20,000 nucleotides of DNA from an uncultured virus (IMG/VR IMGVR_UViG_3300034418_007342) (lineage: Duplodnaviria > Heunggongvirae > Uroviricota > Caudoviricetes). Shown here in pieces: positions 8,645-13,236 of this stretch. The notes beneath the pieces were generated by a model. That model did not search any database and was not told where the DNA came from. It was given only the letters and a program-made list of their open reading frames with translations. The DNA lies in IMG/VR virus record IMGVR_UViG_3300034418_007342, positions 56,111-76,110 of that record, one strand, 5' to 3'. The first letter of the stretch is position 1. Each line of letters starts with the position of its first letter. The position numbers and the translations under genes were made by a program.

Positions 8645-8914
8645 TTAAACCAAGTCAACTTGAACAGGCGTAATGCTACCATCCACGCCGTTATAATTAA
8701 AGCCAAAACCAACAGGCATTTCTTTGTCGCCCCGACGTTTTGCATGACGACGTTCTTGTGCCAAATTCATAAGAGCCATCTGGGTTGCTGTCGCATGCAT
8801 GTCAGTGCAGATATCGGCAGTGCCAGCTACCGTGGTGTAAAAACCAACACCATCGACAATAACACGAATACGTTGGCTGTTTTTGAAGCCGCCGATAAAA
8901 GTAGGTGTACGCAT
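8645..8914 (-). CDS. Hypothetical protein (89 aa)
   Basis: AAAAGGAG RBS and own promoter. Confidence 0.75.
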   Translation of the reverse strand: MRTPTFIGGFKNSQRIRVIVDGVGFYTTVAGTADICTDMHATATQMALMNLAQERRHAKRRGDKEMPVGFGFNYNGVDGSITPVQVDLV

Positions 8915-8944
8915 TTCAAACTCCTTTTCTTACACTATGCCTAT

Positions 8945-9001
8945 ATTATAGCAAAATGACGAATTTCGAGCAAGTACTACTTTAGTAGTAATACTTTAGT
9001 A
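8945..9001 (-). promoter_or_regulatory. Early-type promoter with two tandem TACT-WW-AGTA palindromes
   Basis: TACTAAAGTA at 9001-8992 and 8987-8978, 4 nt, TTGCTC (8973-8968), 17 nt, extended TGc-TATAAT (8950-8945). Confidence 0.75.
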
Positions 9002-9241
9002 CTACCATTCTTTCTTGCCGCCCAAGTCTTCGTTCCAGTCATAGCCCGCATTGTATTCGGCTATCTGATCCTTGGTCATAAAACGCTCTTCGATCTCGTC
9101 ACTTTGATAAGTGGCATCTGTGAAAAAGTGTGGGCGACGTGGACGGCTGTACCAACTATCGGCGCTACCACGGTCGAATGGGCCACCGTGACGACCATCG
9201 TAAAATTTACCCCGATACTCTCGAATTTCTGTGCTTTGCAT
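9002..9241 (-). CDS. Hypothetical phage protein (79 aa)
   Basis: AAAAGGAG RBS and own promoter; RHGGPFDRGSADSWY...IAEYNAGY. Confidence 0.8.
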   Translation of the reverse strand: MQSTEIREYRGKFYDGRHGGPFDRGSADSWYSRPRRPHFFTDATYQSDEIEERFMTKDQIAEYNAGYDWNEDLGGKKEW

Positions 9242-9271
9242 TTATTACTCCTTTTCTTAACTGATGCCATA

Positions 9272-9314
9272 ATTGTAGCAAAAAACGGAATATTCTGCAA
9301 GTACTACTAAAGTA
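9272..9314 (-). promoter_or_regulatory. Early-type promoter with TACT-WW-AGTA palindrome
   Basis: TACTTTAGTA (9314-9305), 4 nt, TTGCAG (9300-9295), 17 nt, extended TGc-TACAAT (9277-9272). Confidence 0.7.
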
Positions 9315-9322
9315 TTATTTTT

Positions 9323-10462
9323 TTAGGATGTTATTGATTCTTTTGCGATAGGGTACATTCCTGCGATAAATCCTGTCAGTTTTTCCCCTTCTGCTACTGT
9401 TTGAAAATATTTGTTTTCAATTACAGAATGCAACCCTTGCATTGTTTCAAAGAAATGATAATTAAGTTTGTCATTCATTGCTGGATCAAGATCCATGAGC
9501 GCTAGATCCCACGCAAAATTAAAATTGCTCCATTTAGATCCTTGGAAAAAGTTAAGATCTACTTCTGGATAAATTATTGCTCTAATACAATTTTCGTAGA
9601 ACTCCCTGGCTCTTGGTGTTTGCGGCCACCGTATAAATTGTTTGAACATTGGATTTTCTTCAAAAAACCTTACAATTAAATGGCACTGCTTTGCAATCAT
9701 TCTTGCACTACTGGGATGCCAATAAAAATATTCTGTTCTTTCATTGTTAAGTTCCGAAGTTGTTGCAAAACCAACTTGATCTAAGAAATACAATTTGTAA
9801 GTATTGTCCTGTAAACATACTCTTGGTTTACATATACCCCAGATGATAATACTATTTTGCATTGTACTGATACGTTTTTCGATTGAAGATATATTATCTA
9901 TACTCCATCTTTTGTCAGCAAAATACGCTAGGTTTGTTCCTCTATGCAAACTAAAATCATCATCTATTTTATAATTGCTGTATCCATCAGTCCAATCATA
10001 AACAGTAATTTTAGTTTCGGGATGATTTTGTCTCATCCACTGTAGTTTGGGTTTTACAGTTAATTCCCATTCAGACAATTGATTGACATCTTTATAGTCC
10101 CATGGATCAGTACCTCGTACTTCTGAAAGTTTTACTGCCCATGAGACTACGATTTCGTCGATTTTCAGATTATTTTTTATAAATGCATTTAGTATATTGT
10201 GACTGTCAGAACCACCACTAAAAGCAAGTATTACATAATCGTAAGTTTGCCTTATCTCCTTTGCTCTTTGCGAATACAATTCACTGAGACTCTCCTCTGG
10301 CTCTTCAGACCAAGAAAATTTATCGAAAACATCATTGTTGAAGACCCATTCAGGGTGTATGTTTCTTTCTGTACCATCTATTAAGGCAGCAACCTTATTC
10401 AAATGAATTTTGTCGCCGACTTGATAGTAGCCTAGTCTCATTGAGGAAGGAGAATAAAGCAT
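9323..10462 (-). CDS. PP-loop (adenine nucleotide alpha-hydrolase/HUP superfamily) protein, substrate unknown
   Basis: YVILAFSGGSDSHNIL (SGGxDS) followed by IDEIVV; AGAGG RBS; starts 11 nt after the tctC stop. Confidence 0.75.
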   Translation of the reverse strand: MLYSPSSMRLGYYQVGDKIHLNKVAALIDGTERNIHPEWVFNNDVFDKFSWSEEPEESLSELYSQRAKEIRQTYDYVILAFSGGSDSHNILNAFIKNNLKIDEIVVSWAVKLSEVRGTDPWDYKDVNQLSEWELTVKPKLQWMRQNHPETKITVYDWTDGYSNYKIDDDFSLHRGTNLAYFADKRWSIDNISSIEKRISTMQNSIIIWGICKPRVCLQDNTYKLYFLDQVGFATTSELNNERTEYFYWHPSSARMIAKQCHLIVRFFEENPMFKQFIRWPQTPRAREFYENCIRAIIYPEVDLNFFQGSKWSNFNFAWDLALMDLDPAMNDKLNYHFFETMQGLHSVIENKYFQTVAEGEKLTGFIAGMYPIAKESITS

Positions 10463-10473
10463 GTTTTACCTCT

Positions 10474-11391
10474 TTACTTCAATAGTTTTTCGGTATCTTT
10501 GATTTGCTTGTTAATAAACACTTCTGCATCTGCACCTGGAGTCCAATCTACAGGAGCAAAAGCAACCTCTGCAAATTCTTTGAAACTATCAGTGGTAATA
10601 ATAGATTTCATACGATCTGCTAGTTTGGCTTTGTAAGCAGGATCCATATCTGCATTCACAGTAAGTCCTAGCCATAGACCAAATGTTTTCATATTTTGAT
10701 TAACTGAATCAAAGTTTGGCTTATCTTTAAGAATGCTGTTTTGCTTGATCATGTTGTAGCCTACAATTTGAAATTTGCCTGCTTTGGCTGCTTTGTAACC
10801 TACGCCTGGATCTAGCGCCAAGTCCAAATCACCTTTTGAAAGTGCTGGCAAAATTTCTGGGCCTTTCTTGAAAGGAACAACAACTAAGTTCAAATTGTAT
10901 TCTTTTGCCAACCATGCAATTTGGGCACGGTGTACACCAGTAAAGCCGCCTACTTTAATTGGCCGGTCAAAACTCCTTAGGTAAGACATCAGTGTATCCC
11001 AGGAATTAACTCCTTTAACACTGTTGGGTACATACCATAGTGTTGGTTCATCGCTGTACTTAACAAGAATTGATTTGTCGCTTACACCGATATCTTTGTC
11101 TTTGTGTACAAAACGGTTTTGTACCCATACACTACTACCATGGCAAAGAACTTTAGTTTTACTAGAGTTATTGCTCATTTCCCTAGCAGCCAAAATTCCA
11201 TCAGCACCGGTTTTAACATTGATTTTAACTGTTTCGTTGAATTTTTGTTCATACTCACTAAACATTTTTCGACAGATTCGATCTAGAAGTCCACCACCGT
11301 GTGTGAGGAAGGCTTCAAGTTGTTGTGCGTAAGAAAAATTAATAGTGCCAAGTGTTAGCGCACCTGTTAATAAGATTGATTTAAATTTCAT
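10474..11391 (-). CDS. tctC: Tripartite tricarboxylate transporter substrate-binding protein (TctC/Bug family), divergent
   Basis: Signal peptide (MKFKSILL...SYA/QQ), GGGLLDRICR, KTGADGILA, VPFKKGPEILPALSKGDLD, WLGL; downstream of tctA. Confidence 0.8.
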   Translation of the reverse strand: MKFKSILLTGALTLGTINFSYAQQLEAFLTHGGGLLDRICRKMFSEYEQKFNETVKINVKTGADGILAAREMSNNSSKTKVLCHGSSVWVQNRFVHKDKDIGVSDKSILVKYSDEPTLWYVPNSVKGVNSWDTLMSYLRSFDRPIKVGGFTGVHRAQIAWLAKEYNLNLVVVPFKKGPEILPALSKGDLDLALDPGVGYKAAKAGKFQIVGYNMIKQNSILKDKPNFDSVNQNMKTFGLWLGLTVNADMDPAYKAKLADRMKSIITTDSFKEFAEVAFAPVDWTPGADAEVFINKQIKDTEKLLK

Positions 11392-11420
11392 TAATTTCTC
11401 CGTAATAAAGTCATAGACAA

Positions 11421-11450
11421 ATTATACTTTTTTGTATAAAACATTGTCAA
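11421..11450 (-). promoter_or_regulatory. Consensus sigma70 promoter for tctC with overlapping palindrome
   Basis: TTGACA (11450-11445), 18 nt, TATAAT (11426-11421); TTATAC-N6-GTATAA inverted repeat at 11422-11439. Confidence 0.8.
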
Positions 11451-11464
11451 TAGTTTTGGTTTAA

Positions 11465-11578
11465 TGCTTGCGAGAATTCGCTTACGGACGGCGTTCTGTT
11501 GTAACACAACAGTAAAAGAGTTTTGCTACTCTAAGCGTCGATTGATTGTTCCGACGTCACATCATTGTGGCGTTGCTA
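11465..11578 (-). ncRNA. Candidate structured RNA (family not recognised)
   Basis: About 115 nt of non-coding sequence, GC-richer than its flanks, forming five consecutive hairpins and starting just after TAAATA (11588-11583). Confidence 0.55.
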
Positions 11579-11581
11579 GAA

Positions 11582-13066
11582 TTATTTAGTCAACTGTCGA
11601 TGTAAGTAATTAAATTTTCTGACAAAACTCCAAAGTATAAAGATTACACTAATTGACAAAAAGAACAAACTTATATTGCTTTCTAAAAATTTCATAAAAC
11701 TGCCATCTGAAATCGTTAGTGTTCGCCTTAGGTTTTCTTCAAATAAAGGTCCTATAATATATCCAAAGATTAAAGGCGCTGACTCTAACTTACAGAATAT
11801 AAAAACAATACCCAACAAAGTAAAAAATATAGCAGTGCCTACATCAAACCAACTCTCTTTGATAAAATAGACTCCAACTAATGCTATGGAAATTAATAAA
11901 GGATATAAAATAGATTTTGGATAACTTATAATCTTCATCCACATTTTTACAAATGGTATGTTTAGAAATAACAAAAACATATTGCCTAGAAGCATACTTG
12001 CTAGTAATCCCCAAAATAATTCAGGATACTCTGTAACGGTCCCGGGACCAGGTTGGACGCCATTTATAATCAGCGAAGACAGTATCAACGCCATAACTGG
12101 ATTTTCAGGAATTCCCAAAGTCAGCAATGGAATTAGGCTTGTTTGACTAGCAGCATTATTGGCACTTTCCGGGGCCGCAACTCCTTCTATTGCGCCCTTT
12201 CCAAAATCTTGTTTGTTTTTACTTACTTTTTTCTCTACTACATAAGCGGCGAAAGCACTCATAACTGCACCACCACCCGGAATCACACCCATTACTGTTC
12301 CTACTCCTGTACCTCTTAGTATACTAGGGATAACTCGTTTTAAATCCTGGAAACTAAATCTGAGTTTAAACTCCATGGGTTTATTTTCTAAGTTTTTGTC
12401 TAATAAATGCGTTACTAAGGCCGGCAATCCTAACACACCAATAACTAACGCTCCAACAGTAATGCCATCTACTAGTTCAAGTTGATTAAGTGTGAATCTT
12501 TCTGTGGCAGAATTTATGTCTGTGCCAACAGTTCCTAATAGCATGCCAATACAGGCCATGCCCAAACCTGTCACAAGGTTTTCACTAGTAATTACACTAA
12601 TGCTTATTATACCCAATAACATTAAACTGGCAAACTCTGTTGGTCCGAACTCAAAAGCAATGTCACTTAGTGCTGGAGCGGCAAAGGCAATGGCAAATAC
12701 TGCAAAGATACCAGCAACAAAACTGCCTATGCCTGCTGAGATAATTGCTTCGCTGGCCCTGCCTTGTTGTGCCATTGGATACCCATCTATACAAGTCATT
12801 ACTGTACTGGGTTCTCCTGGCACATTAAGCAAGATACTAGTATTGGATCCTCCATATTGTGCTCCATAGTAGATTCCTGCCATAAGAATAATACTAGTAA
12901 TAGGATCAAAACCGTAGGTAAAGGGTAAAAGAATACTTAAACAAATTACAGTACCGATACCCGGTAGAATACCAATAGCAGTGCCTAACAAACAACCTGC
13001 AATTAGAAACAATAAATTATTAATTTCAAATACTGTTTGAAATCCGAGCAAAAGATTGTCTATCAT
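11582..13066 (-). CDS. tctA: Tripartite tricarboxylate transporter permease TctA
   Basis: IGILPGIG, IYYGAQYGGS, ILLNVPGEP, DGYPMAQQGRA, GVIPGGGA, EGVAAPESANNA, IPLLTLGIP, GVQPGP, EENLRR. Confidence 0.95.
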   Translation of the reverse strand: MIDNLLLGFQTVFEINNLLFLIAGCLLGTAIGILPGIGTVICLSILLPFTYGFDPITSIILMAGIYYGAQYGGSNTSILLNVPGEPSTVMTCIDGYPMAQQGRASEAIISAGIGSFVAGIFAVFAIAFAAPALSDIAFEFGPTEFASLMLLGIISISVITSENLVTGLGMACIGMLLGTVGTDINSATERFTLNQLELVDGITVGALVIGVLGLPALVTHLLDKNLENKPMEFKLRFSFQDLKRVIPSILRGTGVGTVMGVIPGGGAVMSAFAAYVVEKKVSKNKQDFGKGAIEGVAAPESANNAASQTSLIPLLTLGIPENPVMALILSSLIINGVQPGPGTVTEYPELFWGLLASMLLGNMFLLFLNIPFVKMWMKIISYPKSILYPLLISIALVGVYFIKESWFDVGTAIFFTLLGIVFIFCKLESAPLIFGYIIGPLFEENLRRTLTISDGSFMKFLESNISLFFLSISVIFILWSFVRKFNYLHRQLTK

Positions 13067-13236
13067 TTCTTGACTCCGTTAAGTACCCCTAATAATATTA
13101 AAAATAATCCCAAAGCCAACGGAAAAAATCCTGGGCCCATTTTAGACAACGAGCCAATTTTGTAAAATATAACTGCGCCGATGCTAAAATAGGCACCAAT
13201 GCTACAAAACAGTAAACTGGTAATAATTTTTTTCAT
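13063..13236 (-). CDS. tctB: Mini TctB-like membrane subunit (57 aa, about 2 TM helices)
   Basis: Below the track cut-off; MKKIITSLLFCSIGAYFSIGAVIFYKIGSLSKMGPGFFPLALGLFLILLGVLNGVKK. Has the TctB GxxxxMGPGxFP motif and ATGA overlaps at both ends. Confidence 0.8.
   Translation of the reverse strand: MKKIITSLLFCSIGAYFSIGAVIFYKIGSLSKMGPGFFPLALGLFLILLGVLNGVKK

Follow-up and report, generated by a model that had tools for sequence, protein, structure and literature searches.

Structured orphan RNAs ahead of auxiliary metabolic genes were described from marine cyanophages, namely manA (RF01745), wcaG (RF01761) and PhotoRC-II (RF01717). They are likely 5' UTR RNAs of these phage genes and were proposed to adjust host metabolism (PMC2864571, in part). 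Riboswitches are rare in phages but have been reported, with glutamine riboswitches in phage Melnitz as an example (PMC9004378, in part). An automated IMG/VR candidate, DNAVirus_2108, is 70 nt long and comprises 24 sequences, 23 of them from freshwater, one of which is followed by TctC within 25 bp (Fremin and Kyrpides 2023, PMC10690425, in part); the main-text portion of that paper that was examined contains no function or discussion of this candidate.

The RNA described here is located in a 20,000-nt stretch of DNA (the window), which forms the final 20 kb of a phage contig that is 76 kb long and has an estimated completeness of 22%. Like the cyanophage RNAs, it precedes auxiliary metabolic genes, but its fold, hosts, habitat and genes are different; it also comes with a late-type promoter, and the only contigs that yielded it were those of phages. 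The models RF01745, RF01761 and RF01717 did not match it. With metabolite riboswitches upstream of transporters it shares a multi-stem conserved core, a variable periphery and transporter genes downstream, whereas a terminator, an anti-Shine-Dalgarno element and bacterial copies were absent in the searches made. Compared by its catalogue description alone, DNAVirus_2108 is shorter and has 3 covarying bases; it may be a piece of the present RNA, which bears on the novelty of the latter.

The original prediction, a functional RNA that could not be matched to a known class by eye, was consistent with the database searches. Rfam 15 gave no matches on the window and none at E ≤ 10 on positions 11350-11700. 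On 20 homologue loci, Rfam returned only a neighbouring tRNA and two chance rows, and ARAGORN detected no tRNA or tmRNA in the window or the contig. By-eye likenesses to pistol, hatchet, twister and HDV-like ribozymes, SRP RNA and attC had no Rfam support and were discarded. No description of the motif was found in the literature searched, subscription journals lying mostly outside that search. We regard the RNA as a real, widespread and uncurated phage motif outside Rfam.

Genomic context

The exonuclease of the contig was nearest to its counterparts in PA5oct, Paride, XaC1 and CBB, all of which are jumbo phages (48-50%), and freshwater metagenome runs contained identical copies of the region. 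The cassette that carries the RNA (Table 1) was missing from its site in close relatives (L022-L024), and L025 had a different gene of 501 aa at this position. A 5-nt microhomology was present at both cassette junctions (13233-13236 / 9322). The site is an insertion hot spot, flanked by a 127-aa gene and an early-promoter gene. Two 90-nt modules (8911-8999 and 9238-9326), each with a promoter and a ribosome-binding site and 74% identical, precede consecutive small genes.

Table 1. Coordinates of the promoters, RNA elements and genes in the window
Feature	Position	Strand	Remarks
TAAATA late-type promoter box	11583..11588	minus	overlaps tctA stop codon
Predicted transcription start (+1)	11577	minus	A after U
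Sigma70-type promoter	11421..11450	minus	perfect, 12/12 consensus; between RNA and tctC-like gene
Structured RNA motif, 111 nt	11466..11576	minus	model R2
P0	11576-11575 with 11467-11466	minus	2 bp; closes four-way junction
P1 hairpin	11554..11573 (11573-11566 with 11561-11554)	minus	C11570-A11557 mismatch
P2	11485..11553 (11553-11551 with 11487-11485)	minus	encloses two variable linkers and P3
P3 module	11490..11539	minus	GACG 11539-11536 with CGCC 11493-11490; A11538-C11491 mismatch
P4 hairpin	11517..11532 (11532-11528 with 11521-11517)	minus	sequence variable
UUUAC junction and P5 hairpin	11496..11516	minus	UUUAC 11516-11512 conserved; P5 11512-11506 with 11502-11496
P6 hairpin	11470..11481 (11481-11478 with 11473-11470)	minus	then AAGC 3' end
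tctA	11582..13066	minus	upstream of RNA; PF01970 E 7.7e-140
Short tctB-like gene, 57 aa	13063..13236	minus	PF07331 E 3.3e-5, below cut-off
TctC/Bug-like solute-binding protein, 305 aa	10474..11391	minus	PF03401 E 4.9e-6, just below curated cut-off
PP-loop ATPase, 379 aa	9323..10462	minus	no Pfam match
Cassette tctB-tctA-RNA-tctC-PP-loop ATPase	9322..13236	minus	inserted, variable site; 3.9 kb

The first gene downstream of the RNA in the window encodes the TctC-like protein, which has phage-type relatives; its start codon is located 74 nt past the RNA. The structure model of the PP-loop ATPase (pLDDT 87.6) was comparable to asparagine synthetase (Z 10.8, rmsd 5.6 over 294 residues) and beta-lactam synthetase (Z 9.2), and these are the closest folds to the predicted one. 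Foldseek yielded no match at E ≤ 0.001 and weak rows to MnmA. Asparagine synthetase and beta-lactam synthetase are enzymes that activate carboxylates. The PP-loop ATPase family is large and virus-only and often occurs beside TauD-like oxygenases, desaturases and halogenases, a neighbourhood that is possibly a phage module for small-molecule biosynthesis.

A tie between the RNA and the 3' end of tctA was rejected, as the other phage tctBA loci inspected did not have the RNA; the tctA loci L059 and L060 were negative with covariance model R2. In many phages of the group and in varied contexts, tctA was accompanied by a short tctB-like gene (57-139 aa) but lacked an adjoining tctC (L059-L061, L063, L065-L070 and L073).

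Identification and distribution of the RNA family

Against cultured phages, blastn gave nothing meaningful and tblastn of the TctC-like and PP-loop proteins gave no match. Searches by the TctC protein or by the exact two-part motif recovered identical copies alone. The first full-length homologue (58 bits, E 4e-12) was obtained in one of five related phage records with a covariance model (R1) built from a single sequence and its plus-strand minimum-energy fold. Its neighbours were a PP-loop gene on one side and a DctP-like gene on the other. The plus-strand structure of R1 was dropped after this homologue had been found.

A search pattern for the 3' half matched 27 stretches, of which 23 were true (20 distinct, including that of the window) and four were due to chance. 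All 20 distinct matches carried TAAATA and the 5' half, although the pattern specified neither. The 5'-half pattern matched at least 122 stretches. With all loci pooled, there were at least 129 distinct matches, at least 117 with the 3' elements and 12 by chance; eight of the latter served as controls for model R2, which scored none of them. The RNA of the window, with 112 bits in model R2, is one of at least 117 distinct copies of a real structured RNA (positions 11576-11466, minus strand). The invariance of the core bases is partly built in, because the search patterns prescribe many of them.

Among the matches listed, the RNA copies were situated solely on jumbo-phage contigs. Five near-complete genomes (316-354 kb), picked as carriers of the RNA, had one copy each, and at least three contigs, including L141, had two. 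None of five phage fragments picked without regard to the RNA was positive. Of five cultured related jumbo phages, one gave a match at E ≤ 1 (E 0.12), which was judged to be chance on inspection. The patterns matched 25 stretches in the GTDB, 23 of which were chance matches on inspection; the two real copies were on contigs rich in genes of the phage group, and a third GTDB copy, found by the model, was likewise on a phage-derived contig. Jumbo-phage contigs (L233, G011:C94; L242, G012:C31; L259, G012:C90) had been binned into two GTDB bacterial assemblies, which makes these assemblies unreliable as host evidence. In a search of 151 genomes of one bacterial family with 23 candidates scored per genome, 150 were negative and the centre itself matched. 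So far, all finds of the RNA belong to a single group of freshwater jumbo phages.

Secondary structure and covariation

Covariation supports a four-way junction (P0, P1, P2 and P6) with P3 as a branch. In a MAFFT alignment of 42 copies, 96.1% of the cells were paired and 14 of 25 pairs changed on both sides; the covariation score was 0.44, compared with 0.19 in shuffled alignments (0/500) and at most 0.11 for slid partners. In a model-fitted alignment of 89 distinct copies, which leans towards the model, the respective values were 98.8% and 16 of 25. The top mutual-information pairs were all helix pairs.

Support for the core was uneven. The first pair of P1 (A-U 94, G-C 16, G-U 3, A-C 1; n = 114) changed about 13-15 times on the RNA tree, and the outer pairs of P1 covaried strongly. 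Two tree changes each were observed for the third pair of P2 (G-C 108, A-U 6; n = 114) and the fourth pair of P3 (G-C 97, C-G 17; n = 114). P0 was recovered unaided by RNAalifold and showed no two-sided change. The position of P3 that follows its fourth pair was C-A in 96 and U-G in 15 of 114 copies, an alternation that would be expected of a wobble-shaped pair. The same CGCC/GACG helix with a C-A mismatch occurs in both P1 and P3, and this accounts for the repeat of AACGCC in the original prediction, each copy being a strand of one of the two helices. RNAalifold suggested an ACG/CGU pairing instead of P2 and P3; we rejected it because it is broken in the 17 copies with GACC/GGCC, whereas P2 and P3 show covariation.

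The periphery was more variable. P3 was capped by a three-way junction (P4, UUUAC, P5) in 97 of 114 copies and by a simpler arm in the other 17, and the whole P3 module was duplicated in tandem in three homologues (L077, L122 and L183). Two-sided changes were seen in all four pairs of P4 (99.7% of cells paired), in all four of P6 and in the three modelled pairs of P5, to which mutual information adds two more. The RNA ranges from 82 to 121 nt in length, small enough for immediate in vitro tests. Three DNA read runs contained no variant within it. A subtype in which a conserved 20-nt arm replaces the three-way junction (L104, L133, L203, L213, L220 and L222) was tied to one radical SAM/SPASM family.

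The interpretation as a functional RNA is supported, with a corrected secondary structure. All strings listed in the original prediction are present on the minus strand where it had placed them, and its five hairpins constitute the minimum-energy fold of the sequence. Three of these, AGAGU/ACUCU, CUGUUGU/ACAACAG and GCGA/UCGC, correspond to P4, P5 and P6 and are conserved and covarying among the homologues. The CACA/UGUG stem is also conserved and covarying, but represents only the outer part of the longer P1. The CGUCGG-N9-UCGACG hairpin does not belong to the conserved fold, in which its strands pair elsewhere (P1, P2 and P3); five or six of its six pairs can still form in 85 of 114 copies, and it may be an alternative conformer. 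The competing CGCUUA/UAAGCG pairing, proposed to close a multiloop, retains all six pairs in 4 of 114 copies and is not part of the conserved fold either.

Folding energy was unremarkable. Of the outcomes named in advance as refuting the prediction, one alone came about, in that the single-sequence energy was not significant (z -1.72; 7 of 200 shuffles were as good). The minus-strand z ranged from -0.9 to -1.7 across six windows, and 817 of 2452 contig windows were more extreme; it was the homologues that settled that the RNA is real. Enforcing the core raised the energy by 5.0 kcal/mol above the free minimum on average (85 copies), and the full drawn structure in the window was 8.4 kcal/mol above it. 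A core penalty of about 5 kcal/mol fits an RNA that needs a ligand, a protein or tertiary contacts.

Promoters and transcript

TAAATA was positioned 5 or 6 nt ahead of the core in 104 of 114 copies. The sixth base past the box was a purine and the fifth a pyrimidine, each in 102 of 114 copies, so the motif should begin at +1. In the related phage CBB, ATAAATA was proposed to be the late promoter (PMC5259590, in part). The box is the same as that of T4-type late promoters (TATAAATA; ATAAATA in phage CBB), but these are followed by a short unstructured leader, whereas here a conserved RNA fold starts at +1. On the contig of the window, TAAATA precedes 9 of 73 ORFs, seven of them in one block, which we read as presumed virion genes. 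The many covarying homologues under a late-type promoter support the original prediction of a structured RNA.

As had been noted, the RNA is followed by a sigma70 consensus site and has no U-tract terminator. In 14 of 116 homologues, the window included, the gap ahead of the gene contained a sigma70-type site. A run of four T occurred in 11 of 117 copies and no intrinsic terminator was found; consequently, transcripts should run on. One RNA read run covered 205 nt of tctA and none of the motif, and is uninformative about expression. The region of the sigma70 promoter is quasi-palindromic. It includes a promoter-like site of lower strength that reads on the plus strand into the RNA, making antisense transcription possible.

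Genes downstream of the RNA

The distance from the RNA to the next start codon had a median of 31 nt, and was within 40 nt on the same strand in 90 of 116 loci. The next genes were classed by Pfam on 65 chosen genes, and all 116 were sorted by seeds. Uptake proteins made up 68 of the 116 (DctP-like 30, TctC-like 25, TctA 5, porin 4, ABC binding protein 4) and enzymes 32 (PP-loop ATPase 10, TauD-like 8, radical SAM 6, hexapeptide transferase 4, desaturase 3, halogenase 1), in addition to DUF2061 (6), one unknown family (3) and unassigned genes (7). No single pathway was represented. In loci with long flanks, such gene classes were present downstream in 86 of 87 and upstream in 42 of 87, a comparison that is biased because the classes were seeded from downstream genes. 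TctC, DctP, 2-oxoglutarate oxygenases and the carboxylate-activating synthetase-like fold suggest carboxylates as a common thread. The RNA also marks a so far uncharacterised cassette that combines binding proteins with TauD-like oxygenases and asparagine-synthetase-like enzymes.

By eye, the DctP-like proteins encoded behind the RNA (L078:2103-3044; about 30 loci) begin at the mature domain, seemingly without a signal peptide, and hence may act in the cytoplasm. In two different phages (L074:1651-2629; L084), the DctP-like gene consists of two overlapping ORFs with the same split point, either a true split or a programmed frameshift.

Function of the RNA

The RNA is probably a structured leader that acts in cis at the 5' end of late phage transcripts. 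Its conserved fold lies on the coding strand, right behind TAAATA and shortly ahead of uptake and metabolic genes. This position and orientation, the missing terminator, and the two copies of L141, which lie 1 kb apart at the head of consecutive genes and each have a separate TAAATA, argue for a leader. The single copy in each of the five near-complete genomes, as in a stand-alone RNA gene, the sigma70-like site that intervenes before the gene in 14 of 116 homologues, and L212, in which a tRNA gene comes after the RNA, argue against it.

In the leader mechanism that we propose, the phage late sigma factor would set the start of transcription on the motif's first base. The core, built of two helices that contain C-A wobble-like pairs and surround the four-way junction, would be only marginally stable, and its folding would require a partner, either a small metabolite or a protein. 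When folded, P0 would join the 5' triphosphate end to the 3' end of the motif and could protect the mRNA against decay that depends on the 5' end, while the ribosome-binding site stays free. The downstream gene would be ON once the RNA is folded, and control would be exerted by mRNA stability or translation instead of termination. We favour 5'-end protection or translational control because no expression platform, either a terminator or a sequestered ribosome-binding site, was found among the copies examined. Pairing of the Shine-Dalgarno window to the motif was 0.14 for the own gene versus 0.13 for swapped genes, so there was no anti-Shine-Dalgarno signal; the only sign of a platform was a weak one at P6 (-4.52 vs -4.14 ± 0.19 kcal/mol).

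This leader may be bound by a protein or be purely structural, or, about as likely, it may sense a ligand. Consistent with a riboswitch are the 5' position on the same strand, the covarying conserved core and the shared metabolic theme downstream, but not the lack of an expression platform. Known riboswitch classes occur in bacteria, whereas this RNA was not found in the bacteria searched, apart from phage-derived contigs. A possible form would be a phage-only riboswitch, an aptamer made of C-A-mismatch helices at the late +1 that senses a carboxylate or pH and switches genes via 5'-end protection. It would act on phage-encoded uptake and small-molecule genes without a terminator or an anti-Shine-Dalgarno helix. 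Judged from the gene set, the best guess for the metabolite would be a carboxylate (2-oxoglutarate, citrate, aspartate or glutamate); alternatively, protonated A-C pairs might sense cytoplasmic pH. A metabolite sensor would represent a virus-owned riboswitch class, with a ligand type hinted at by carboxylate transporters, and would show how a phage tunes nutrient uptake in the infected cell late in infection.

Somewhat unlikely, but next in order, is a gene for a trans-acting small RNA with a late promoter, which would bind a host or phage protein as a decoy or a scaffold. Cleavage in the A/U-rich linker that follows P0 (79% A/U) would free such an RNA, its C-A helix would be a repeated protein-binding site, and it would head these cassettes because the promoter is shared. 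The one copy per genome, the paired ends (P0), as stable RNAs have, and the separate sigma70 promoter for the downstream gene keep this explanation alive. The exact start at the predicted +1, the own promoter in all 20 unselected homologues and the tandem P3 of three copies, suggestive of extra binding sites, also fit. However, the RNA was never opposite to the next gene, its distance to the start codon is tight, no intrinsic terminator was found, and the twin copies of L141 head consecutive genes. A decoy RNA would point to a protein target.

A new class of self-cleaving ribozyme that processes the 5' end of late transcripts is improbable. Phages carry many ribozymes, and a core that is compact and invariant, peripheral hairpins that vary freely and a minimal form of 82 nt would suit one. 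Yet Rfam ribozyme models did not match even at E 10, the narrow gene association and the duplicable internal module fit poorly, and cutting the extreme 5' end has no obvious purpose. We give slightly less credence still to a link with the neighbouring PP-loop ATPase, for which the RNA would be a substrate, a guide or a site of feedback. The PP-loop gene was present in the flanks of 56 of 87 loci and its superfamily includes tRNA-modifying enzymes (compare the Foldseek rows to MnmA), but 31 of 87 loci had no PP-loop gene within the flank examined, and the best fold matches were small-molecule amide synthetases rather than RNA enzymes.

It is very improbable that the plus strand is the functional one, as an antisense RNA or a single-stranded DNA structure: its folding was stronger (z -2.0 to -3.5; 2 of 2452 contig windows more extreme) and lower in energy in 114 of 114 homologues, an advantage that arises because the conserved C-A pairs become G-U there, but the variable stems contained 28 G-U versus 2 A-C on the minus strand, beside 999 Watson-Crick pairs, confirming the strand originally predicted, and the promoter box as well as the initiator signature indicate the minus strand.

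Outside the window, two further regions of the contig (G000 C1:40549-40672 and 26165-26288, minus strand) folded more strongly than their G+C content predicts (residual z -3.9 and -3.6, respectively).
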